Below, piece by piece: positions 1-9,274 of a stretch of 23,044 bases of DNA; the stretch's first letter is position 1, and every line of letters starts with the position of its first letter. This DNA is from a virus (taxonomy: Duplodnaviria; Heunggongvirae; Uroviricota; Caudoviricetes): IMG/VR virus record IMGVR_UViG_2778261246_000008; one strand, given 5' to 3'. The notes beneath the pieces are model-generated. The model was not told the DNA's origin. It searched no databases and saw nothing but the letters and a program-made list of their open reading frames with translations. The translations under genes and the position numbers were made by a program.

Positions 1-975
1 TTACCCAGCAATAGGATTAAATCTCACCGCATCCTGCAAGTAATCCGGCGCAAGGTGGGCATAAATCATCGTTGTCTGAATCTTTGCGTGCCCCAGAATT
101 TTCTGGAGCGTCAGAATATTGCCGCCGTTCATCATGAAATGACTGGCGAAGGTGTGGCGCAGCGCATGAACAGCCTGGCCGTCAGGAACATCAGGTGCGA
201 CCGTTTTGATGACATCGCGAACCAATGGATAATCCAGCGTCGGAAACACCAGTTTCCCGCCCCGTTTTTTGATCTTTTCAAACAGGCTTTCAGAAATAGG
301 AACGGTACGGTTTTTGCTGTTCTTCGTTTTTGAAAAAGTGATTCGACAATGAAGAACACGGCGCTGCTCCAGTGCCGCTACCTCGCCCCATCGCGCCCCG
401 GTCGACAGAAGGATTTCGACAGCCAGCCGTTCATCGGGATTTTCAGCCAGTGCATCCAGCAACTGAACACATTCAGACTTACTCAGATATCCCATTTCGC
501 GCTCGTTAACCTTCATTCCTTTAAGGCCTTGAACGGGGTTATCGTTAAGAAAATGGCCGGATGAGATGAGTGCGGTAAACATCGCGCTTAACGCCCCAAT
601 CTCTCGATTTATGGTGCTGGGCTGTATCCCCTGCTCTATCCTGGACACACGTAGCTCGGTGAGCATCGTTGTATTAAGTTTATGCACGCACGGGTCATCC
701 ATTGCCTCACTCAAGCGCAGCAATTTAAGGCGCGTGTTATGCCCTGACTTCATTAGCTGGCCGTGGTATTTCCACCACAAGTCAATAAGCACTGACAGCG
801 GACGGCGATCAATGGAGTTTCCTTTCCACTCATTGTTATGCTGTTGCGCCAGCACCCACCGCTCATATAAAACTGCATCCGATTTCGTTTTAAATTTTTT
901 GCGAATGCGTTTGCCTTTACGCCCCTCAGGACGCATGTCAAGAAGATACCCTCCCGGAATTGATTTTATGCTCAT
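1..975 (-). CDS. int: Phage tyrosine integrase (P2 Int-like site-specific recombinase)
   Basis: The minus-strand ORF 1..1125 ends with a stop at 1-3. Its C-terminal half carries the tyrosine-recombinase signature (ARWGE...HALRHTFASHFMMNGG...LGH...TTMIYAH). I chose the internal start MSIKS (ATG at 975) because it gives a ~324-aa protein and avoids a 100-nt overlap with the upstream repressor gene; the N-terminus from there reads like P2 Int as I recall it. Confidence 0.9.
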   Translation of the reverse strand: MSIKSIPGGYLLDMRPEGRKGKRIRKKFKTKSDAVLYERWVLAQQHNNEWKGNSIDRRPLSVLIDLWWKYHGQLMKSGHNTRLKLLRLSEAMDDPCVHKLNTTMLTELRVSRIEQGIQPSTINREIGALSAMFTALISSGHFLNDNPVQGLKGMKVNEREMGYLSKSECVQLLDALAENPDERLAVEILLSTGARWGEVAALEQRRVLHCRITFSKTKNSKNRTVPISESLFEKIKKRGGKLVFPTLDYPLVRDVIKTVAPDVPDGQAVHALRHTFASHFMMNGGNILTLQKILGHAKIQTTMIYAHLAPDYLQDAVRFNPIAG

Positions 976-1024
976 TCGTGAAGCCCCAGCGTTACAAGAC
1001 CACCATGCCCCCAGCGTTCCATGA

Positions 1025-1336
1025 TTAGCCGGGCTGTGTGCCAGTCTTGCGGGATTTTTGAGAAGACGATGTGTTTTCTGGCCCATCAGGGGAGAGAGAA
1101 GGACTGATCTGCCCAGCAGCCTCATTTGTTTCGTTACTCATCAACCACGTAGTGTATTTTTTAAATTCCGGGTGCATTGTGATTTTCAGTAAAACCTCCG
1201 TTCCCACACCTCGAATACCAGTCTCGTATTGCTTAACCGTACCAACCGCAATACCTATTGAATCCGCGAACTTTGCCTGACTAAGCCCCTCAGATTCTCG
1301 AATTGCTTTTAGCTTCTTTGATATCTCTATTGACAT
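1025..1336 (-). CDS. C: Immunity repressor, HTH (XRE-like), P2 C-type
   Basis: Internal start MSIEISKKLKAIRESEGLSQAKFADSIGIAVGTVKQYETG within ORF 1025..1438 gives a ~103-aa protein with an N-terminal helix-turn-helix. It is transcribed divergently from the early operon and sits immediately upstream of int, as in the P2 C-int arrangement. Confidence 0.75.
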   Translation of the reverse strand: MSIEISKKLKAIRESEGLSQAKFADSIGIAVGTVKQYETGIRGVGTEVLLKITMHPEFKKYTTWLMSNETNEAAGQISPSLSPDGPENTSSSQKSRKTGTQPG

Positions 1337-1431
1337 GGTGTGCACCTGAATACTATATTGGTTATCAGTTGAGTACCACTTGACGCTACAAAGAGCCACA
1401 AATAGCACCAGATTGAATAGGTTATCACACC
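1330..1431. promoter_or_regulatory. Immunity switch region: candidate early rightward promoter (TTGACA 1330-1335, 18-nt spacer, TATATT 1354-1359) and direct-repeat operator candidates
   Basis: A sigma70-like -35/-10 pair is read directly on the + strand and overlaps the repressor start codon. The 8-bp direct repeat GGTTATCA occurs at 1360-1367 and 1420-1427 (extended 10/12 match atNGGTTATCA), flanking the putative early transcription start region. P2-type repressors bind direct repeats. Confidence 0.45.
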
Positions 1432-1710
1432 ATGGCAAAAGTCCTTAACACATACGAACAAGCGGATTTTGAGCGTTTGGCGGCGTTCTACCCATACCGT
1501 AATGAACATGGGCTACCGGTACTTGAAGAAAGCCTAGAGGATTATGCGAAACGCACAAATCAAAGCATTCTCGCTGTAAGAAGGCAGGCTGATAGATCGG
1601 TAATTCCCGTTACTCAAGAAGGAAGAAACACAAAACGCAAAGTAAATCTCTTCGCAATTTTCCTGAAAACCATCAGAAACGCAGAGAAATACGTGCAGAT
1701 GACAAAATAA
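1432..1710 (+). CDS. cox: Cox-like excisionase / early transcriptional regulator
   Basis: First gene of the rightward operon, divergent from the repressor. The segment DYAKRTNQSILAVRRQADRSVIPVTQEGR has the small winged-helix excisionase pattern and resembles the corresponding part of P2 Cox from memory. No obvious Shine-Dalgarno. Confidence 0.6.
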   Translation: MAKVLNTYEQADFERLAAFYPYRNEHGLPVLEESLEDYAKRTNQSILAVRRQADRSVIPVTQEGRNTKRKVNLFAIFLKTIRNAEKYVQMTK

Positions 1711-1724
1711 CGAGGTGTCATTTT

Positions 1725-2063
1725 ATGCTGAAGCAACGCCGTAATTTTTGTACCGGAACAGAACGCCACGCTAACCGTTTCACTACCAGTGCATCACGCA
1801 GCAACATCCGCTACAGCCTGAGTGATACACACGCAACGCCGGATGGCTACCCAGTAAAACAAATCGGCGAGCACGCCTGGCTGATTGAGAAAGCTGGAAT
1901 CGTGATCCACAAATGCCCACGCAATCCGTTTACCGGAAACCGCATTTTTGCACTGAGCTGTGGCGACAATCAGTTCGGGCAGGATTTCACATTATACGAA
2001 GCACTTCGCACGGTTGATCGTCTGCTTCGCGGGCAAAGTTTTATTAAACAGGCTGATTTATAA
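1725..2063 (+). CDS. Hypothetical early protein (Cys/His-containing, possible zinc-binding)
   Basis: ORF with a GAGGTG Shine-Dalgarno 8 nt upstream of the ATG and consistent codon usage, in the early operon between cox and A. No family recognised. Confidence 0.6.
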   Translation: MLKQRRNFCTGTERHANRFTTSASRSNIRYSLSDTHATPDGYPVKQIGEHAWLIEKAGIVIHKCPRNPFTGNRIFALSCGDNQFGQDFTLYEALRTVDRLLRGQSFIKQADL

Positions 2064-2073
2064 CAGGTGCTTT

Positions 2074-2361
2074 ATGACCAAAGACCATGCACAAGGTGTA
2101 TTTATCCGTTTTATTGATTTTCGCGGTGAACTGTTATTACGTGCATCCGCTATTGACGGAGTGACTCCGGCGGGTAAAAACGGAGCCGACGAAGCCACTT
2201 ACGTTTATCTGAACGGCACGCGACTGCTTGTGGAACTTCCGTACCAGACCGTACGAGAAATCATCAGCGAAGCTGAAAAGGCACGCCAGGTTAATGGCGA
2301 TGAACCCTATATCGAAATTATTTGTATGGATTCAGAGGCTGAAATACAGAAAGCAGATTAA
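2074..2361 (+). CDS. Hypothetical early protein
   Basis: Internal ATG at 2074 (MTKDHAQG...) within ORF 1960..2361, preceded by an AGGTG Shine-Dalgarno and starting 11 nt after the upstream stop. Confidence 0.55.
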   Translation: MTKDHAQGVFIRFIDFRGELLLRASAIDGVTPAGKNGADEATYVYLNGTRLLVELPYQTVREIISEAEKARQVNGDEPYIEIICMDSEAEIQKAD

Positions 2362-2372
2362 AGGGCGTTGTG

Positions 2373-2615
2373 ATGGGCAAAGAATATAAAACTCTCATTA
2401 ACAAAGCACTTGAGCGTTTTTATTTTCGCTTAAGTGCATCAGGCGCTCATGCTGAACGTGCGGCCCGTGACTCATTGACCAGAGCAATCCGAAGTCTGTA
2501 TGACGTGGCTTTTTACGCTGATGATCTGGATGCACTTAACGAACTTTCCGAGCTGATCTGTGCCGCAGAATGCGGGGAACATATTGAACCGTATAAGCTG
2601 GGAAATATCGCATGA
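2373..2615 (+). CDS. Hypothetical early protein
   Basis: ORF 2370..2615 with an ATG at 2373; tightly packed with its neighbours in the early operon. Confidence 0.55.
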   Translation: MGKEYKTLINKALERFYFRLSASGAHAERAARDSLTRAIRSLYDVAFYADDLDALNELSELICAAECGEHIEPYKLGNIA

Positions 2616-2725
2616 GTATATTTATTTCATGGCTTGTTCTGATTATTTCGGTGGTCTGCGCCATTGGGATTATGCGAATTATTAATTCAGTAAAAAAGAT
2701 TGAACGCTTTTTCACTGAAGAATAA
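2612..2725 (+). CDS. Small single-pass membrane peptide (37 aa), unannotated in the ORF track
   Basis: ATG at 2612 overlaps the upstream stop as ATGA. Hand translation gives MSIFISWLVLIISVVCAIGIMRIINSVKKIERFFTEE: a ~20-residue hydrophobic helix followed by a charged tail. Confidence 0.4.
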   Translation: MSIFISWLVLIISVVCAIGIMRIINSVKKIERFFTEE

Positions 2726-2811
2726 CCGCGCAAATAAGACCCCAGGTTAAATAAGAAAATGTGAAAACAATCCGCATTCGCGGAGGTATTCGCACACGCC
2801 AAGGAGGCGTA

Positions 2812-3015
2812 ATGGCAATTAAGCATTTTCCTGTCGTTCGTTTCACCTCCAGAGGACGTGAATACGAAGTTGACGAACGCCTGATTACCACAATCGACAA
2901 ACACCGTTCAGAAAAGGATGCACATCACATCTATCTCACTGACGGCACTTACTTCTGCGCCACCAACGTGGTGCAGGTGAATCTTATCAGACAGGTACAG
3001 GAGTCACGCAGATGA
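2812..3015 (+). CDS. Hypothetical early protein
   Basis: ATG at 2812 is preceded by a strong AAGGAGG Shine-Dalgarno (2801-2807). It lies in frame within ORF 2761..3015. Confidence 0.55.
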   Translation: MAIKHFPVVRFTSRGREYEVDERLITTIDKHRSEKDAHHIYLTDGTYFCATNVVQVNLIRQVQESRR

Positions 3016-3770: not shown

Positions 3771-6593
3771 ATGACGGCAGAGTACATCAGGGACTGGCAA
3801 CAACCGCGCCACGCAGTGGGGCGTGAAGGAACGGGGATCCCCGCTCCTGAATCCGCGCTTTCCTCCTGGCTGGATGCCTACCGGGTAGAGAACGAGCGCC
3901 GCCAGGAAATGGCTGATGCGGCCTTCTCCGCCACGCCACTGGGCAACCTGATTAATAAAAGCCTGGACGCACAGGAAAAACAGGACAAAACCATCACACT
4001 GGCAGGAGACGCCAGAAAACAGGCACGCGGCGCGGTGGATGAAGCCATGGCCTCGCTGCGCCTGCTGCCGTCCTATCTGCGCGATCCGCTTATTCGCCAC
4101 CTCTCCTTCCTGCGCAAAAAACAGGAAGCCGATCGCCGGAAAGGCAAAAAGAGCTGGCAGGCGGAACGCTATGCACGCGGAACCCTGCGCAAAATATTCG
4201 AACGTCTGGATCGCACTGACGGACACTGGCTGACACCGGGTTATCGCTCCCTTGCCGGACGCGAACGCCTGGACGATTTGCTTTACCTGCCGCAGCTCAA
4301 CAAACACCAGATACAGACGCTGGCCACCATGACGGCGGCGATGTTCAGCAGCACCTTCGAAAAACTCTGCGATGGCTTTGGCGCGACCGATGGCGAACTG
4401 ACCATGGATGTAACGCTGAAGGCGTATCAGATGCTGGCCCGCATGGCGTTACACCTGCACATCATGCCTCCACATTATGACGCACTGACAACAGATAAAG
4501 ACCGGAGGAACGAACCGGACACGGAGCTGCTGCCGGGCGCAATCCTTCGCCTGACCTGTGCGGAATGGTGGAAACGCAAACTGTGGCTGTTACGTTGCGA
4601 GTGGAGAGAAGAACAACTCCGCGCCGCCTGTCTGGTTTCCAGAAAAACATCACCCTATCTGAGCCAGGACGCGTTAAGCGAGTTTCGCGCACAGCGCGAG
4701 AAAACACGCGATTTCCTGAAAAGTTTCATGCTGGAAAACGAAGACGGGTTCACGATTGATCTCGAGACAGTGTATTACGCGGGAGTAAGTAACCCGGTTC
4801 ACCGTAAGGCAGAAATGATGGCCACCATGAAGGGGCTGGAACTTCTGGCCGAAGCCCGTGGCGACAAAGCGGTGTTTCTGACTGTCACCTGCCCGTCAAA
4901 ATACCACGCCACAACAGAGAACGGTCATCCGAATCCCAAATGGAACGGGGCCACCATGCGCGACTCCAGCGATTACCTAGTTAACACGTTTTTTGCAGCG
5001 GTCCGCAAGAAACTGAACCGCGACGGCCTGCGCTGGTATGGCATCCGCACGGTGGAGCCTCACCATGACGGCACCGTGCACTGGCATATGATGGTCTTTG
5101 CTCATCCGGAAGAAATCGACACCATTGTGTCCCACACCCGCGATATTGCCATTCAGGAAGATCGTCACGAGCTGGGTGATGATATTACCCCACGCTTTAA
5201 GGCGGAGTACGTCGACGGCTCAAAAGGCACGCCAACCAGCTACATCGCCACCTACATCGGAAAGAACCTGGACAGCCGCGCCGTGGATGGCATCGACCCG
5301 AAAACGGGCAAGCCACGCGTTGACCACGAAACAGGTAAATCAATGGCCGAGAGCGTGGAGCGCGCCATCGGCTGGGCGCGCCTTCACCGGGTCCGCCAGT
5401 TCCAGTTCTTTGGCATCCCCTCCCGTCAGGTGTGGCGTGAACTCCGCCGCCTTGCCAGCCAGATGGCACGCAACCCGGAAGGCCCGCAACGGCTGAAGGA
5501 TGACGCAATGGATGCGGTACTCGCTGCCGCTGATGCCGGATGTTTTGCCACCTACATTGAAAAACAGGGTGGCGTACTTGTTCCGCGCAAGGACTACCTG
5601 ATTCGCACAGCCTACGACCTCGCAGATGAGCTGAACGATTACGGCGAACAGAGTGTACAGATTTACGGGATCTGGTCGCCATTCATCGGGGAATCCTCCC
5701 GTGTGTGCACGCATCCGGATAACTGGAAGCTGGTAAGACGTAAACCGGAAGCGGAAGACAGCGCCCGCGAAAATGGTTTTGACCTTCAGGGCGGCCCTGC
5801 CGCCCCTTGGACTCGTGGCAATAACTGTCCCCGTGTACAGGAAACGGACAACAACGGGACAGAACAGCCGGAAGAACGGCCAGCACCGTGGCCGCAGCTC
5901 CCTGATGGCGTTGAAGTGAACGAATGGATGCGCTCACTGAAACGACACGAACGCCGGGCGCTGATGCGTTCGCTTCGTGACAAACAGGCAAAAAACAGCA
6001 GCGATGAAATGCAGAGCTGGACACAGAGCCGCAAACAGCCACGGCCTTTGCCTGATAACCACGAATTACTCGCTAAAGAATGGCGGGAGTCTGCTGAATC
6101 TCTCGGCCTGCATATCGGTGAACAACAGATGCAGCACCTGTTACGGGGCGGCAGTCTGTACGTTGACGGCAGCATCATTGCACCGCAGGGATTTGAAATT
6201 GTACGCAAACCGGATACCCGCCCGGACAGCCGAATCACGCAGCTCTGGCAGCGCCTGAGCCGTAATCATGGCGTAAGCAGCACGGAGATCCGCCATAACC
6301 CGGTCGCCAGCTATCTGGCACAGCTGGGGGCATCAGACCCTGAAGCCGCCGCACGCCTGGCATCCACACTTCAGCAGGACCAGAACACCATGAAAACACC
6401 CGTTACCGTGCTTTCTGACATGCTGCGCGCCATCCGCGACGCAGAGCACGCACAGAGAATCAGTGAAACCACTGAACGCGCCAGCCGCAAAGCAGACCTG
6501 CTGCGGGGTGGCATGACCAGTGGAAACAAAAAACAGACAGAAACGGGATTCACAAATCCCATAAATGAGCAAAAAACGTGCCGCGATATATGA
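3771..6593 (+). CDS. A: Rolling-circle replication initiator / endonuclease, P2 gpA family
   Basis: 940-aa ORF with the HUH metal-binding motif (TVHWHMMVF) and the paired catalytic tyrosines (TSYIATYIGKN) typical of P2 A-type initiators. Position after the early small genes matches P2. Confidence 0.9.
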   Translation: MTAEYIRDWQQPRHAVGREGTGIPAPESALSSWLDAYRVENERRQEMADAAFSATPLGNLINKSLDAQEKQDKTITLAGDARKQARGAVDEAMASLRLLPSYLRDPLIRHLSFLRKKQEADRRKGKKSWQAERYARGTLRKIFERLDRTDGHWLTPGYRSLAGRERLDDLLYLPQLNKHQIQTLATMTAAMFSSTFEKLCDGFGATDGELTMDVTLKAYQMLARMALHLHIMPPHYDALTTDKDRRNEPDTELLPGAILRLTCAEWWKRKLWLLRCEWREEQLRAACLVSRKTSPYLSQDALSEFRAQREKTRDFLKSFMLENEDGFTIDLETVYYAGVSNPVHRKAEMMATMKGLELLAEARGDKAVFLTVTCPSKYHATTENGHPNPKWNGATMRDSSDYLVNTFFAAVRKKLNRDGLRWYGIRTVEPHHDGTVHWHMMVFAHPEEIDTIVSHTRDIAIQEDRHELGDDITPRFKAEYVDGSKGTPTSYIATYIGKNLDSRAVDGIDPKTGKPRVDHETGKSMAESVERAIGWARLHRVRQFQFFGIPSRQVWRELRRLASQMARNPEGPQRLKDDAMDAVLAAADAGCFATYIEKQGGVLVPRKDYLIRTAYDLADELNDYGEQSVQIYGIWSPFIGESSRVCTHPDNWKLVRRKPEAEDSARENGFDLQGGPAAPWTRGNNCPRVQETDNNGTEQPEERPAPWPQLPDGVEVNEWMRSLKRHERRALMRSLRDKQAKNSSDEMQSWTQSRKQPRPLPDNHELLAKEWRESAESLGLHIGEQQMQHLLRGGSLYVDGSIIAPQGFEIVRKPDTRPDSRITQLWQRLSRNHGVSSTEIRHNPVASYLAQLGASDPEAAARLASTLQQDQNTMKTPVTVLSDMLRAIRDAEHAQRISETTERASRKADLLRGGMTSGNKKQTETGFTNPINEQKTCRDI

Positions 6594-6669: not shown

Positions 6670-7629
6670 ATGAAAATTTGTATCGACGACGGCTCCACCA
6701 ACATCAAGCTGGCATGGACTGAGAACGGCGAACGCCGCAACGCCATCAGCCCGAACAGCTTCAAGTCGGAATGGTCTGCGCCGTTCGGTGGCTCGCAGCC
6801 CGCGAACTACATGCTTGATGGCGTGCGCTATGGTTTTGATCCGGTCAGCGATCGCTTTGTCCAGACGACCGACACGCAATACCAGTACAGCGATGTGAAT
6901 GTCATTGCCATTCATCACGCGCTGGTCAAATCAGGCATCACGCCACAGGAGGTGGATGTGGTTGTCACCCTGCCATTGAGCGAGTATTTCGACACAAACG
7001 CACAGCCGGACATGGCCAACATCAGCCGCAAAAAAGCGAACGTTATGCGCCCGGTGGAGTACCAGAACGGCGAAACATTCACTATCCGTAACGTACGGGT
7101 TATGCCTGAATCCATTCCGGCTGGCTTTAAGGCACTGGCTGACATGAGTCCGTTTGAATCCCTGCTGATTGTGGATTTGGGCGGAACCACTCTGGATGTG
7201 GCAAAGGTTCAGGGGCAACTGGCAGGTATCAGCCAGGTGTTTTGCGATCCACACGTAGGCGTTTCTCTGATGGCCGATGCCGTACTGTCGGTGATGGCCA
7301 CTAACGGTATGCGCACCAGTCACCACATCGCCAATACCATTATCGAACATCGCCATAATGAAGCCTGGCTGCGCCAGCACATCCACAATGACGCGCATTA
7401 CGCCAGCCTGATGGCGATTATTCGTGAAAAGGAAGAAACACTGAAACAACGCGTGATCCGCGCGCTGGCGGGTTTTTCGGGTTACGGGCGGGTGATGGTT
7501 GTCGGTGGCGGGGCGGAGATTGTGGCACCCGCTATCCGCGAAGCCTGCGGAGTTAATGCGACTTTCATCGCGGACGGGGTGCCACAGTTTGCTCTGGTTA
7601 ATGGGCTGTACGCAATGGACAAGGAGTAA
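6670..7629 (+). CDS. parM: Actin-like ATPase of the ParM/StbA family
   Basis: The N-terminus MKICIDDGSTNIKL, plus SPNSFK, YSDVNVIAIHHAL, VMPESIPAG, LLIVDLGGTTLD and VVGGGAE, line up with the phosphate-1, connect and adenosine motifs of plasmid R1 ParM as recalled. AAGGA Shine-Dalgarno upstream. Confidence 0.85.
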   Translation: MKICIDDGSTNIKLAWTENGERRNAISPNSFKSEWSAPFGGSQPANYMLDGVRYGFDPVSDRFVQTTDTQYQYSDVNVIAIHHALVKSGITPQEVDVVVTLPLSEYFDTNAQPDMANISRKKANVMRPVEYQNGETFTIRNVRVMPESIPAGFKALADMSPFESLLIVDLGGTTLDVAKVQGQLAGISQVFCDPHVGVSLMADAVLSVMATNGMRTSHHIANTIIEHRHNEAWLRQHIHNDAHYASLMAIIREKEETLKQRVIRALAGFSGYGRVMVVGGGAEIVAPAIREACGVNATFIADGVPQFALVNGLYAMDKE

Positions 7630-8008: not shown

Positions 8009-8344
8009 ATGCAACGCATTGACAGAGAAAAAGCGCAGCGACTGATTGAGCGGATGGAAGCGCTGGCGAAAGAAGAAAATGTCAACATCCAAAAAATAGC
8101 TGAATGTGGCCAGATAGTTCTTCGTCGTGAAAAAGACCTCAAACAACTGATGTCTGGCGAAACCAGCAAAACATGGACTTCAGGTGAGGAGACGATTTAT
8201 TGCAGCTTCTGCAATAAATCCCAGTACGAAGTCACAAAGGTGATTGCCGGACCGTCTGTTTACATCTGCAATGAGTGCGTTGATTTGTGCAATGAAGTTA
8301 TCAGGAGAGAAGTGACAGACCATGAAGAAAAAACGCATGAATGA
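8009..8344 (+). CDS. Stand-alone ClpX zinc-binding-domain-like protein (C4 zinc ribbon) with an unrelated N-terminal helical extension
   Basis: The C-terminal segment [40 protein letters not shown] is near-colinear with the N-terminal zinc-binding domain of bacterial ClpX (CSFC...CxxC), but there is no AAA+ module. AGGGGGA Shine-Dalgarno. Confidence 0.8.
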
Positions 8345-8510: not shown

Positions 8511-8918
8511 TTAAATATAATCTTCTTCGTAGTCGCTGATTAATTCATTGCCATAATCAGACAGCAATTTCAAAGCAAAGGTAACTTCCTCAAGGGTAGC
8601 TATCCCCATTGCTGAAAACACCGTTAATTTAACCAGCAGCAGGGAGTTTGAAAGTTCGGAAGAGTTCATCATTAAAAATATTGATGCAGCCTGAAAAGCT
8701 GTGCGTTTATTCCCATCATGAAAGGCATGAGCCTTGGCTATACCAATCAAATACATAGCAGCCAGAGCATGAATATCATCAACCCCTTCATAGTAGTGTA
8801 GTGTCCTGACGCGATTTAAAGCACCTTCAAGTAGCCCGTCATTGGCATTTCCGCTCTGGGGTAAAGTTTCAGCATGGATACGTTCTACTTGTTCTTTTGA
8901 CAAAAACACTATGTCCAT
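8511..8918 (-). CDS. doc: Doc-family toxin (Fic/Doc fold)
   Basis: Contains the Fic/Doc motif HAFHDGNKRTA. Its start overlaps the stop of the upstream antitoxin gene as ATGA on the minus strand. AT-rich relative to the phage backbone. Confidence 0.85.
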   Translation of the reverse strand: MDIVFLSKEQVERIHAETLPQSGNANDGLLEGALNRVRTLHYYEGVDDIHALAAMYLIGIAKAHAFHDGNKRTAFQAASIFLMMNSSELSNSLLLVKLTVFSAMGIATLEEVTFALKLLSDYGNELISDYEEDYI

Positions 8919-9274
8919 CAGTTATCCTCAAGCTTTTTAATGATATCCGCATGTTTTTCTCTTGTACGCTTCATTGCATCTTCAAAAGACAATCCTTTTT
9001 TTCTCTGTGCGACAAGAGCTGGATGACGTTTTTCCAGATCTCTCACTGCATTTATTAAGAGTGGTTGCTTCATTTTGTTTATTTGATCCCGCAGTTTTTT
9101 GGTTTTGCCAAGGACAGCCCGTATTTCAGGACTAAGATCAGAACCAGCAAGAACAACATCCTTCCCTCCCTGCGCCGTGATAACGACACTGCCACCGGAA
9201 GAAAGGTAATCCAGAATTTCACTCAGGTTCTCACGAAATTCATCATCAGTTACAGTTTTCATATTCATTTCCAT
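8918..9274 (-). CDS. phd: Phd/YefM-family antitoxin
   Basis: Small acidic protein immediately upstream of doc and translationally coupled to it. The N-terminus (KTVTDDEFRENLSEILDYL) fits the Phd/YefM pattern. The true start may be one of the internal ATGs (MEMNMK). Confidence 0.7.
   Translation of the reverse strand: MEMNMKTVTDDEFRENLSEILDYLSSGGSVVITAQGGKDVVLAGSDLSPEIRAVLGKTKKLRDQINKMKQPLLINAVRDLEKRHPALVAQRKKGLSFEDAMKRTREKHADIIKKLEDN

Follow-up and report, generated by a model that had tools for sequence, protein, structure and literature searches.

The lysis-lysogeny switch of the P2 type, built on the proteins C and Cox, is a well-studied system. The C repressors of these switches are unusual in that they read non-palindromic direct repeats, and Cox binds phased direct repeats at the lysogenic promoter Pc and in attP. 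To our knowledge, only three C operators have been mapped so far, namely, those of P2, P2 Hy dis, and WPhi. Immunity classes I-VII were reportedly defined by Karlsson et al. in 2006. The spacing of C-operator half-sites known in the P2 family is 22-34 bp (PMC1904268), and the transcripts of the early promoter Pe and of Pc overlap by 35 nt in P2 and by 82 nt in WPhi (PMC1904263). PhiECO5, a prophage of E. coli UTI89, has been placed in a tentative class IX (Nilsson et al. 2011, PMC3448106). Phage 186 uses a repressor, CI, which is about twice as large, is unrelated in sequence, and binds inverted repeats together with distant flanking sites (PMC1904268, PMC3448106).

For the present comparison, a switch is called P2-type when the integrase and C genes are read leftward and a cox-type gene is the first to be read rightward, across a spacer of about 80-150 bp. 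Its repressor is a P2 C homolog of about 100 aa which has a single HTH and carries no RecA-cleavable peptidase domain, and its first early gene encodes a winged-helix protein of the Cox/Apl type. The early promoter, Pe, is a strong sigma-70 promoter that adjoins or overlaps the C start codon and is directed at cox; it is repressed by C, which gives class-specific immunity to superinfection, and a weaker Pc faces it, the two transcripts overlapping. A P2-type operator consists of two direct repeats of 8-10 bp, 22-34 bp apart from centre to centre, which span the -10 or the -35 of Pe. A 186-type switch is recognized by a two-domain CI of about 190 aa that is unrelated to P2 C.

Genes of the locus and the early promoter

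The window, as the whole stretch of 23,044 nt analysed here is called, opens within a P2-like prophage, as seen from a reading of positions 1-3000 and from the listing of open reading frames (Table 1). The integrase is the second gene of the leftward, lysogenic operon. In an identical copy of the prophage, in E. coli 1303, it is annotated as a phage integrase in RefSeq, and the prophage adjoins btuC. The repressor C can be aligned with P2 C (PDB 2xcj/2l49) from residue 1 to residue 99 in both proteins (E 5.5e-18) and matches phrog_147 (4.9e-34); in a domain search, an HTH_3-type domain is the only one detected in its 103 aa. A spacer of 95 nt separates the C gene from the cox-like gene. The 92-aa product of the latter gives no match in Pfam or NCBIfam; its predicted fold matches P2 Cox best, and pairwise BLAST against P2 Cox gives 24.5% identity (E 1e-4). 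On its 3′ side lie small early genes, followed by that of a 940-aa replication endonuclease.

The divergent int-C/cox arrangement of a P2-type switch is present in the window, the repressor has the size, the kinship, and the single HTH of this type, and the first early gene encodes a protein of the Cox/Apl winged-helix type. Since C aligns with P2 C, an integrase gene lies beside it, the 92-aa protein is Cox-like, and the prophage resides in E. coli, positions 1330-1431 are where a P2-like prophage of E. coli controls lysis and lysogeny, through a switch of the P2 (C/Cox) type. This is what the original prediction had proposed, and C proves to be a full-length homolog of P2 C. The C class of the window is widespread. 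Of 5426 complete E. coli genomes, 30 cover at least 80% of positions 1000-1750, which hold the C gene together with the spacer and the first early gene, and in several of the complete genomes the copy is 100% identical. The class also has members in Salmonella (class-mates), whose C protein is listed by 7046 index blocks of the contig collection.

Table 1. Coordinates of the features discussed, in positions of the window
Feature	Position	Strand	Remarks
P2-type tyrosine integrase	1-975	-	Pfam Int_N (1.5e-28), Phage_integrase (7.9e-20)
Immunity repressor C	1025-1336	-	103 aa, HTH_3 domain; start codon CAT at 1334-1336 on the + strand
Block that follows the type of C recognition helix	1327-1378		52 bp; C operator most probably inside
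Pe	1330-1359	+	-35 TTGACA at 1330-1335, 18-nt spacer, -10 TATATT at 1354-1359; predicted start about 1366-1367
TGGTGTGCA, putative O1, partner of box 1	1336-1344	+	23 bp upstream of TGGTTATCA, between -35 and -10
TGTGCACC / TGAGTACC, alternative pair	1339-1346 / 1371-1378		Offset 32; TGGTACTCA contains the second half
Proximal GGTTATCA (box 1)	1360-1367	+	Probable operator half-site, equivalent to O2; covers the Pe start
TGGTACTCA, third TGGTnnnCA, inverted	1370-1378	-	End of the conserved block; the edge in L008 and L013 coincides with its end
CTACA / CCACA / CACCA	1386-1410	+	10-bp phase; possible sites of the Cox homolog
Distal box (GGTTATCA at 1420-1427 on +)	1419-1427	-	TGATAACCT on the - strand; may be the extended -10 of Pc
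First early gene, Cox homolog	1432-1710	+	92 aa; predicted Pc repressor and excision directionality factor

Pe matches the consensus at 11 of 12 positions and overlaps the repressor start codon. Among 3000 shuffles of the 1 kb around it, 66 yield a promoter site with at least 11 of 12 matches, and no promoter-like site besides Pe is found between positions 900 and 1900. Ten related switches were scanned by PWM, among them those of P2 and WPhi, that of a T22 “P2,” and those of six prophage classes retrieved in the analysis. The top score on either strand belongs in these to a TTGACA overlapping or abutting the C start codon, with the -10 hexamer 16-18 nt downstream. The GenBank record of WPhi and P2 itself have Pe at the same place, its -35 overlapping the C start codon. 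Pe is well supported by its match and by this conserved placement, and its transcripts are predicted to start at about 1366-1367. The strong sigma70-like early promoter overlapping the repressor start, as originally described, is borne out by the match at 1330-1359 and by a position shared with P2 and WPhi. An RNA-based explanation of the region was considered and rejected, as the window contains no match to an Rfam family and the Pe leader (1366-1440) is unstructured, folding no better than shuffles (z = -0.05).

The repeat pair and the C-linked block

The spacer contains two copies of GGTTATCA, which lie 60 bp apart from start to start and extend to ATTGGTTATCA and ATAGGTTATCA, with 10 of 11 positions matching. 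The 8-mer has four copies in the 23-kb window versus 0.5 expected. Dinucleotide shuffles of the 95-nt spacer yield an exact direct repeat of at least 8 nt in 95 of 2000 cases, and a 10/11 match in 18 of 1000. The repeat is real, and it exceeds chance only marginally; statistically, it is the best-scoring repeat of the spacer. Its first copy (box 1) begins directly after the -10 hexamer and extends over the predicted Pe start, and the second (the distal box) is found 60 bp further downstream, 4 nt before the ATG (1432) of the first early gene. It had been claimed that the promoter is flanked by repeats 60 bp apart; the repeats and their spacing are confirmed, but the flanking is not, both copies being downstream of the promoter.

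The explanation that is preferred here, and considered probable as a whole, is a P2-type switch in which C acts at 1327-1378 with the proximal box as a half-site, the distal box being part of the cox/Pc module. Pe would fire rightward from about 1366 into the Cox homolog and the early operon. C would shut Pe by binding within the block at 1327-1378, which is always inherited with its recognition helix. Box 1, at the place of P2 O2, would probably be one half-site, and its partner would most likely be TGGTGTGCA, giving a P2-like geometry around the -10. The distal box, which would not be specific to the window C, would most likely form the extended -10 (TGaTAACCT on the - strand) of a facing lysogenic promoter, Pc. 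Transcripts from Pc would start near 1412 and overlap those of Pe by about 45 nt, and the Cox homolog would repress Pc via the CACA boxes in 10-bp phase at 1386-1410.

The search for half-sites relied on a script that lists exact direct repeats after the -35. As a positive control, it recovers the published half-sites (PMC1904268) of P2 (GTTTAGAT, 22 bp) and of WPhi (TATTGGTGAC, 34 bp). The script finds analogous pairs flanking the -10 in the T22-P2, L281, L009, and L011 classes; in the L291 class, inspection of the sequence by eye gave a pair of TGGTTCA with a 32-bp spacing. TGGTTCA is found with one and the same helix 3, ISISTIKKYE, in L011 (24 bp apart) and in L291 (32 bp apart); its recurrence at different spacings shows that the comparison detects real half-sites. 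Applied to the window class, the script lists the 60-bp pair alone, there being no exact direct repeat of at least 6 nt at offsets of 12-45 bp; for the Salmonella class-mates, it lists none. Among the compared classes, that of the window is the only one without a clear proximal repeat.

The position of the operator can be approached through the way in which the region is inherited. Relatives came from three sources, namely, C homologs looked up exactly, a search of viral and metagenome contigs with a 20-base pattern, and IMG/VR relatives of either protein; a 14-base pattern scan of genome contigs returned random matches only. The block at 1327-1378 is 92-98% identical in four lineages in which the DNA of the C gene is only 67-79% identical. 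The lineages that share it, with the same or nearly the same helix 3, are those of the Salmonella class-mates, L008, and L013. L009 and L011 have a different helix 3, and with a C gene that is 71% identical they retain only 60-62% identity in the block. The similarity of the window to L008 and L013 stops right after 1378, and the cox-like gene of these two lineages is much diverged (35-38% identity). Since the block tracks the type of helix 3 and the similarity to L008 and L013 ends after 1378, the C-linked module corresponds to 1327-1378 and includes the proximal box.

Box 1 occupies positions p25-32 after the -35, as compared with p27-34 for P2 O2 and p25 for the second TGGTTCA of the L011 class. 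Of the 10 positions of the WPhi half-site TATTGGTGAC, 8 agree with the overlapping TATTGGTTAT (1356-1365). Box 1 is invariant in about 45 loci of the window class; in L008 and L013, its central TAT is replaced by AAG or TAG, and its flanks are invariant. Given the O2 position shared with P2 and L011, the likeness to the WPhi half-site, and the fact that the helix 3 of WPhi is the closest, box 1 is probably part of the true C operator, and we infer that C binds there.

The best candidate for the partner of box 1 is the degenerate TGGTGTGCA, which stands in the register of P2 O1 (22 bp) and of the first TGGTTCA of the L011 and L291 classes. TGGTGTGCA and TGGTTATCA share only TGGTnnnCA, a motif that was defined post hoc; taken alone, the pair does not exceed chance, and the match at O1 is partly generic because TGGTG right after the C start codon, at the position of TGGTGTGCA, is common to most classes. 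The longer 15-mers GGTGTGCACCTGAAT and GGTTATCAGTTGAGT were rejected as an operator, since their 9/15 match is equalled in 885 of 1000 shuffles, and they are kept as a positional candidate only.

Other repeats of the region lead to a reading, regarded as unlikely, in which neither box is a C contact, the identity of the two 8-mers, one in the Pe start region and the other in the Pc -10 / cox ribosome-binding element, is coincidental, and C binds either CAnnTGA repeats (at 1343-1349, 1366-1372, and 1377-1383) or the pair TGTGCACC / TGAGTACC. Chance identity is plausible to the extent that an exact 8-mer repeat occurs in 95 nt in about 5% of shuffles. In addition, it is the central three bases of box 1 (TAT, AAG, or TAG) that vary between lineages, and CACCTGA and CA[G/C]TTGA are kept, offset by 23 bp, in all three lineages. 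The last base of TGAGTACCA is also the last of the conserved block, and a single natural variant, L254, turns TGTGCACC into TGTGTACC, which is closer to TGAGTACC. However, none of these alternative repeats goes beyond chance. Three 7-mers within one mismatch, as in the CAnnTGA triplet, are obtained in 246 of 1000 shuffles, so that the triplet was rejected as an operator, and 977 of 1000 shuffles do as well as the best 8-mer match at offsets of 15-40. Box 1, moreover, is placed like the O2 of P2 and L011 and is similar to the half-site of WPhi.

The distal box, Pc, and the cox module

The distal box has a different distribution. Just 5′ of the 92-aa gene, (A)GGTTA[T/A/C]CAC is found in the window class and in the L009, L011, L281, and L224 C classes, and GG[T/A/G]TA[N]CA occupies this place in every class that carries the cox-like gene. 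The sixth base of the box (T/A/C) varies with the cox lineage and not with the C class. Equivalents of the box are GGGTAACA in WPhi and GGGTACCA in T22-P2. On the - strand, the element reads TGaTAACCT in the window, TGtTACCCT in WPhi, and TGgTACCCT in T22-P2, and its sole freely varying base is the n of TGn. In WPhi, GGGTAACA lies inside the annotated Pc, which has TGTTAC as its -10 and a start at 1875, in agreement with the published transcript overlap of 82 nt (PMC1904263). The distal box belongs to the cox module and is most likely the extended -10 of Pc. By analogy with WPhi, the position of Pc is a candidate one, with a start near 1412 and an overlap of about 45 nt with the Pe transcripts.

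Some features call for caution as regards this assignment. A PWM scan reveals no consensus promoter on the - strand, and the same scan, which also misses the annotated Pc of WPhi, is uninformative on this point; TAACCT agrees with TATAAT at 3 of 6 positions. The distal box is also within the ribosome-binding zone of the cox-like gene, for which its AGG is the only ribosome-binding-like element. The conservation of this AGG could stem from the ribosome-binding site of cox alone, and translation signals may account for part of the conservation. Another leftward candidate for Pc, GTGGTA-16-TATAGT (1379 to 1352), is less likely, having a 9-nt leader without the AGGTG ribosome-binding site. Of the face-to-face promoters that were originally proposed, Pe is confirmed, and a facing Pc, on a strand without a consensus promoter, is a candidate only.

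The two copies of GGTTATCA had been taken for the operator pair of the repressor. In such a model, C dimers at both copies would cooperate through looping or bending and would block the Pe start, the Pc -10, and the cox ribosome-binding region. The pair is the sole exact direct repeat in the spacer and has the best statistics, both for the 8/8 and for the 10/11 match. A clear proximal repeat, present in six other classes, is missing from that of the window, the place of box 1 is a bona fide operator position, and every variant of the distal box still fits GGTnnnCA. It has also been reported that P2 C autoregulates Pc and that WPhi C can bind a single half-site (PMC1904263, PMC2995052).

The distribution of the distal box, however, argues against this model. 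The box is kept in at least five C classes; in at least four of them, other than that of the window, it accompanies the cox-like gene in the presence of the class's own half-sites, so that its presence needs no C binding. In three of these four, the half-sites flanking the Pe -10 are obvious, namely, AGACGACT in L009, TGGTTCA in L011, and TATAAGTACAC in L281; the fourth class is L224. Conversely, in the Salmonella phages, whose C recognition helix is identical, the box is GGTTAACA, at 59 bp. L008 retains the C-linked block but lacks the distal box, and the L013 lineage has only GGATA[A/G/C]CA (GGATACCA) at a different distance. These last two lineages carry Met in place of Thr at the P2 Thr33 position and may not share the specificity of the window C, which makes the argument from their missing distal box weaker. 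A distance of 60 bp is, furthermore, beyond the known range and about twice the largest known spacing, 34 bp (PMC1904268). The two boxes are probably not the paired operators of the repressor, and cooperation of C dimers across them appears quite improbable. The distal box is also unlikely to be an obligate C half-site, because its presence has reasons that would be unrelated to the window C.

A related proposal, to which only a small probability is assigned, is that this C class has dropped the canonical exact proximal pair and reads GGTnnnCA sites including the distal box over the Pc -10 and the cox ribosome-binding region, so that one assembly bridging 60 bp would shut Pe at its start and directly autoregulate Pc. 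If this were true, bridging over 60 bp together with dual-promoter occupancy would be undescribed for P2-type C repressors.

Between the two boxes lie the elements that may be bound by the Cox homolog. In the sister classes, the equivalent of 1386-1410 contains an exact CCACA-N5-CCACA. In the identical prophage of E. coli 1303, the attL arm carries ACACA/ACACA/CCACA in 10-bp phase, beside TGTGGTCA and TGTGGATCA, which fit the consensus of P2-type Int arm sites, tgTGGaCa (PMC3448106). The exact motif MCACA-N5-MCACA has two matches in 12.7 kb, both of which are in the attL array, versus 0.17 expected. On these grounds, the boxes of the CACA type are candidate Cox sites.

The same evidence bears on the idea that it is not C that binds the two GGTTATCA boxes, but the Cox homolog or the host factor IHF; TATCA, which is the core of the IHF consensus WATCAANNNNTTR, is present in each box. 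The distal box is indeed inherited with the cox-like gene, and TCACA, forming the 3′ part of the box, keeps an approximate 10-bp phase with the putative Cox boxes at 1396 and 1406. On the other hand, other classes with a Cox homolog that is 80% identical have no box near the Pe -10, each box has two mismatches to the IHF consensus, and the arrays of attL and of the sister classes point to CACA-type boxes and not to GGTTATCA. Binding of both boxes by Cox or IHF is regarded as highly improbable.

The two boxes are inherited in different modules, the proximal one with C and the distal one with cox. The comparison of lineages shows the switch as two apparently exchangeable modules, one composed of C, Pe, and the operator and the other of cox and Pc, with a putative junction near 1379-1392.

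Immunity class and comparison with known switches

None of the sequenced phages encodes a C more than 63% identical to that of the window. The identity is 47% with WPhi C, about 40-48% with P2 C (about 40% in global alignment), and 42% with PhiECO5 C. At the base-contact positions of P2, the residues are YTSYR in P2 C and VTKQI in the window C. Among the characterised repressors, WPhi C has the closest helix 3 (ALGTVKNYE, compared to AVGTVKQYE in the window C). As judged by sequence, the C class is new relative to the sequenced phages (at most 63% identity), the numbered classes compared being I (P2), III (WPhi), and IX (PhiECO5). A distinct immunity specificity, as first suggested, is very probable with respect to P2, WPhi, and PhiECO5, from whose repressors the window C differs at 40-48% identity, in the base-contact residues, and in the operator region.

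The switch is an ordinary case of a well-studied system with an uncharacterised repressor specificity. Being alone without a clear proximal repeat, the window class offers a useful test of how half-site sequence and spacing evolve with helix 3. Beyond the exchange of modules and this value as a test case, the locus represents routine prophage regulation.

Comparison with the immunity regions of P2, 186, and related phages identified the switch as P2-type and ruled out the 186 type. The locus would resemble 186 in its face-to-face lytic and lysogenic promoters and in having as first lytic gene that of a small winged-helix protein acting as excision factor and repressor. A CI/Apl switch was nevertheless rejected, since the window repressor has 103 aa and belongs to the P2 C family.

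In PhiECO5, as in the window, a P2-type int-C-cox region precedes the same early genes, those of DUF4761 and DUF4754. Its C has 113 aa and is 42% identical, and its Cox, annotated as Cox family, has 173 aa. The integration sites also differ, being serS/dmsA for PhiECO5 and btuC for the window prophage.

WPhi (immunity class III; GenBank AJ245959; Liu and Haggard-Ljungquist 1999) has the same order of int-C, Pe/Pc, and cox. As in the window, its Pe has the -35 TTGACA at the C start codon and the -10 TATATT, its half-site resembles TATTGGTTAT (8/10), and the GGGTAACA of its Pc -10 region resembles the distal box. In contrast, WPhi has two exact 10-bp half-sites 34 bp apart that flank the -10, whereas the window class has no exact proximal repeat. 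The spacer measures 152 nt in WPhi and 95 nt in the window, and the Pc element is 22 nt from the cox ATG in WPhi as compared to 4 nt in the window. The WPhi Cox and the 92-aa protein are not alignable by sequence.

P2 (immunity class I; C structure 2xcj, Cox structure 4lhf) provides a full-length homolog of C and shares the Cox-like fold. Its half-sites, GTTTAGAT, are unlike those proposed for the window. P2 Pc has the consensus TATAAT about 45 nt from cox, whereas the element of the window, TGnTAACCT, is at the cox start. Around the C start, TTGACATGGTG is identical in P2 and in the window. The 22 bp between O1 and O2 of P2 would be matched by 23 bp if TGGTGTGCA and TGGTTATCA are the half-sites of the window, and in both switches O2 would be placed over the start site of Pe.

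Modular organization of the switch

As judged from sequence comparison, the switch is made up of two exchangeable modules, one consisting of the immunity repressor gene C, the early promoter Pe, and the operator and the other of cox and the facing promoter Pc. In lineages that share only the left module with the window (L008 and L013), similarity stops at 1378, and in those that share only the right module (L009, L011, L281, and L224), it starts near 1392-1397. In prophages of E. coli, Salmonella, and Klebsiella, the repressor module and the cox module have repeatedly been exchanged against each other.

Repeats and operator architecture

Within the switch, an inverted repeat, CATGGTGTG / CACACCATG, is found at window 1334-1342 and 1426-1434 (88% over 16 nt), and the identical six bases CACACC precede the ATG of both divergent genes. 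In Salmonella, the counterpart of CACACC is CACATC and the inverted repeat is not kept; because of this lack of conservation, the repeat is probably a coincidence or reflects translation context. A single natural variant falls within the invariant block that is coinherited with the C recognition-helix type. At the position equivalent to window 1343, GTGCACC is changed to GTGTACC in the Salmonella class-mate L254 / L222; the substitution may be neutral, or it may alter the operator.

In P2, the repeat script returned a third partial copy of the half-site, TGTTTAG, at an offset of 37 from operator half-site O1 and 15 from O2. The published P2 footprint reaches downstream of O2, about to the position of this copy (PMC1904263).

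Among the IMG/VR loci, direct repeats combined with palindromes were observed in the switch regions of L281 and L224. In the L281 class of C, an 11-bp direct repeat, TATAAGTACAC, is present in two exact copies at a distance of 34 bp, and a perfect 18-bp palindrome, GTGTACTTATAAGTACAC, surrounds the second copy. In L009, CTAAAAGTCG...CGACTTTTAG likewise surround the second half-site. Palindromes enclosing direct-repeat operators might bear on how symmetric C dimers read such operators.

Accessory genes and the attL arm

The coordinates of the features are collected in the table. Downstream, the ParM gene is adjoined by a gene annotated in RefSeq as plasmid partitioning/stability, all within a P2-like prophage. 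Such an arrangement suggests that the prophage might be able to maintain itself like a plasmid or that the module was borrowed. The minus-strand genes at window 8511-9274 likely represent, by their family assignments, a prophage-borne Phd-Doc toxin-antitoxin pair.

Features of the prophage and of related loci
Feature	Locus and position	Strand	Basis or remark
Module junction	window 1379-1396		comparison with L008, L013 (left) and L009, L011, L281, L224 (right)
ParM actin-like segregation protein	window 6670-7629	+	StbA_N 4e-82; ParM C-terminal domain 1.6e-67
111-aa protein with ClpX-type C4 zinc finger	window 8009-8344	+	E 3e-17
Fic/Doc family gene	window 8511-8918	-	after Phd/YefM antitoxin-like gene
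Phd/YefM antitoxin-like gene	window 8918-9274	-	
Third partial half-site copy TGTTTAG	L312 (P2), ~37 bp downstream of O1		repeat script
131-aa ORF	L001 4596-4991	-	between int and attL, just beyond the window's left end

In the identical prophage copy of E. coli 1303 (L001), the attL side, between btuC and int (4540-4598), contains ACACA/ACACA/CCACA phased at exactly 10 bp. Next to these come TGTGGTCA and TGTGGATCA, both of which agree with the consensus of P2-type Int arm sites. The segment is likely a P' arm with putative Cox boxes. The neighboring 131-aa ORF gave no Pfam match, and P2 is without a gene between int and attL. The ORF is possibly cargo, or a moron.
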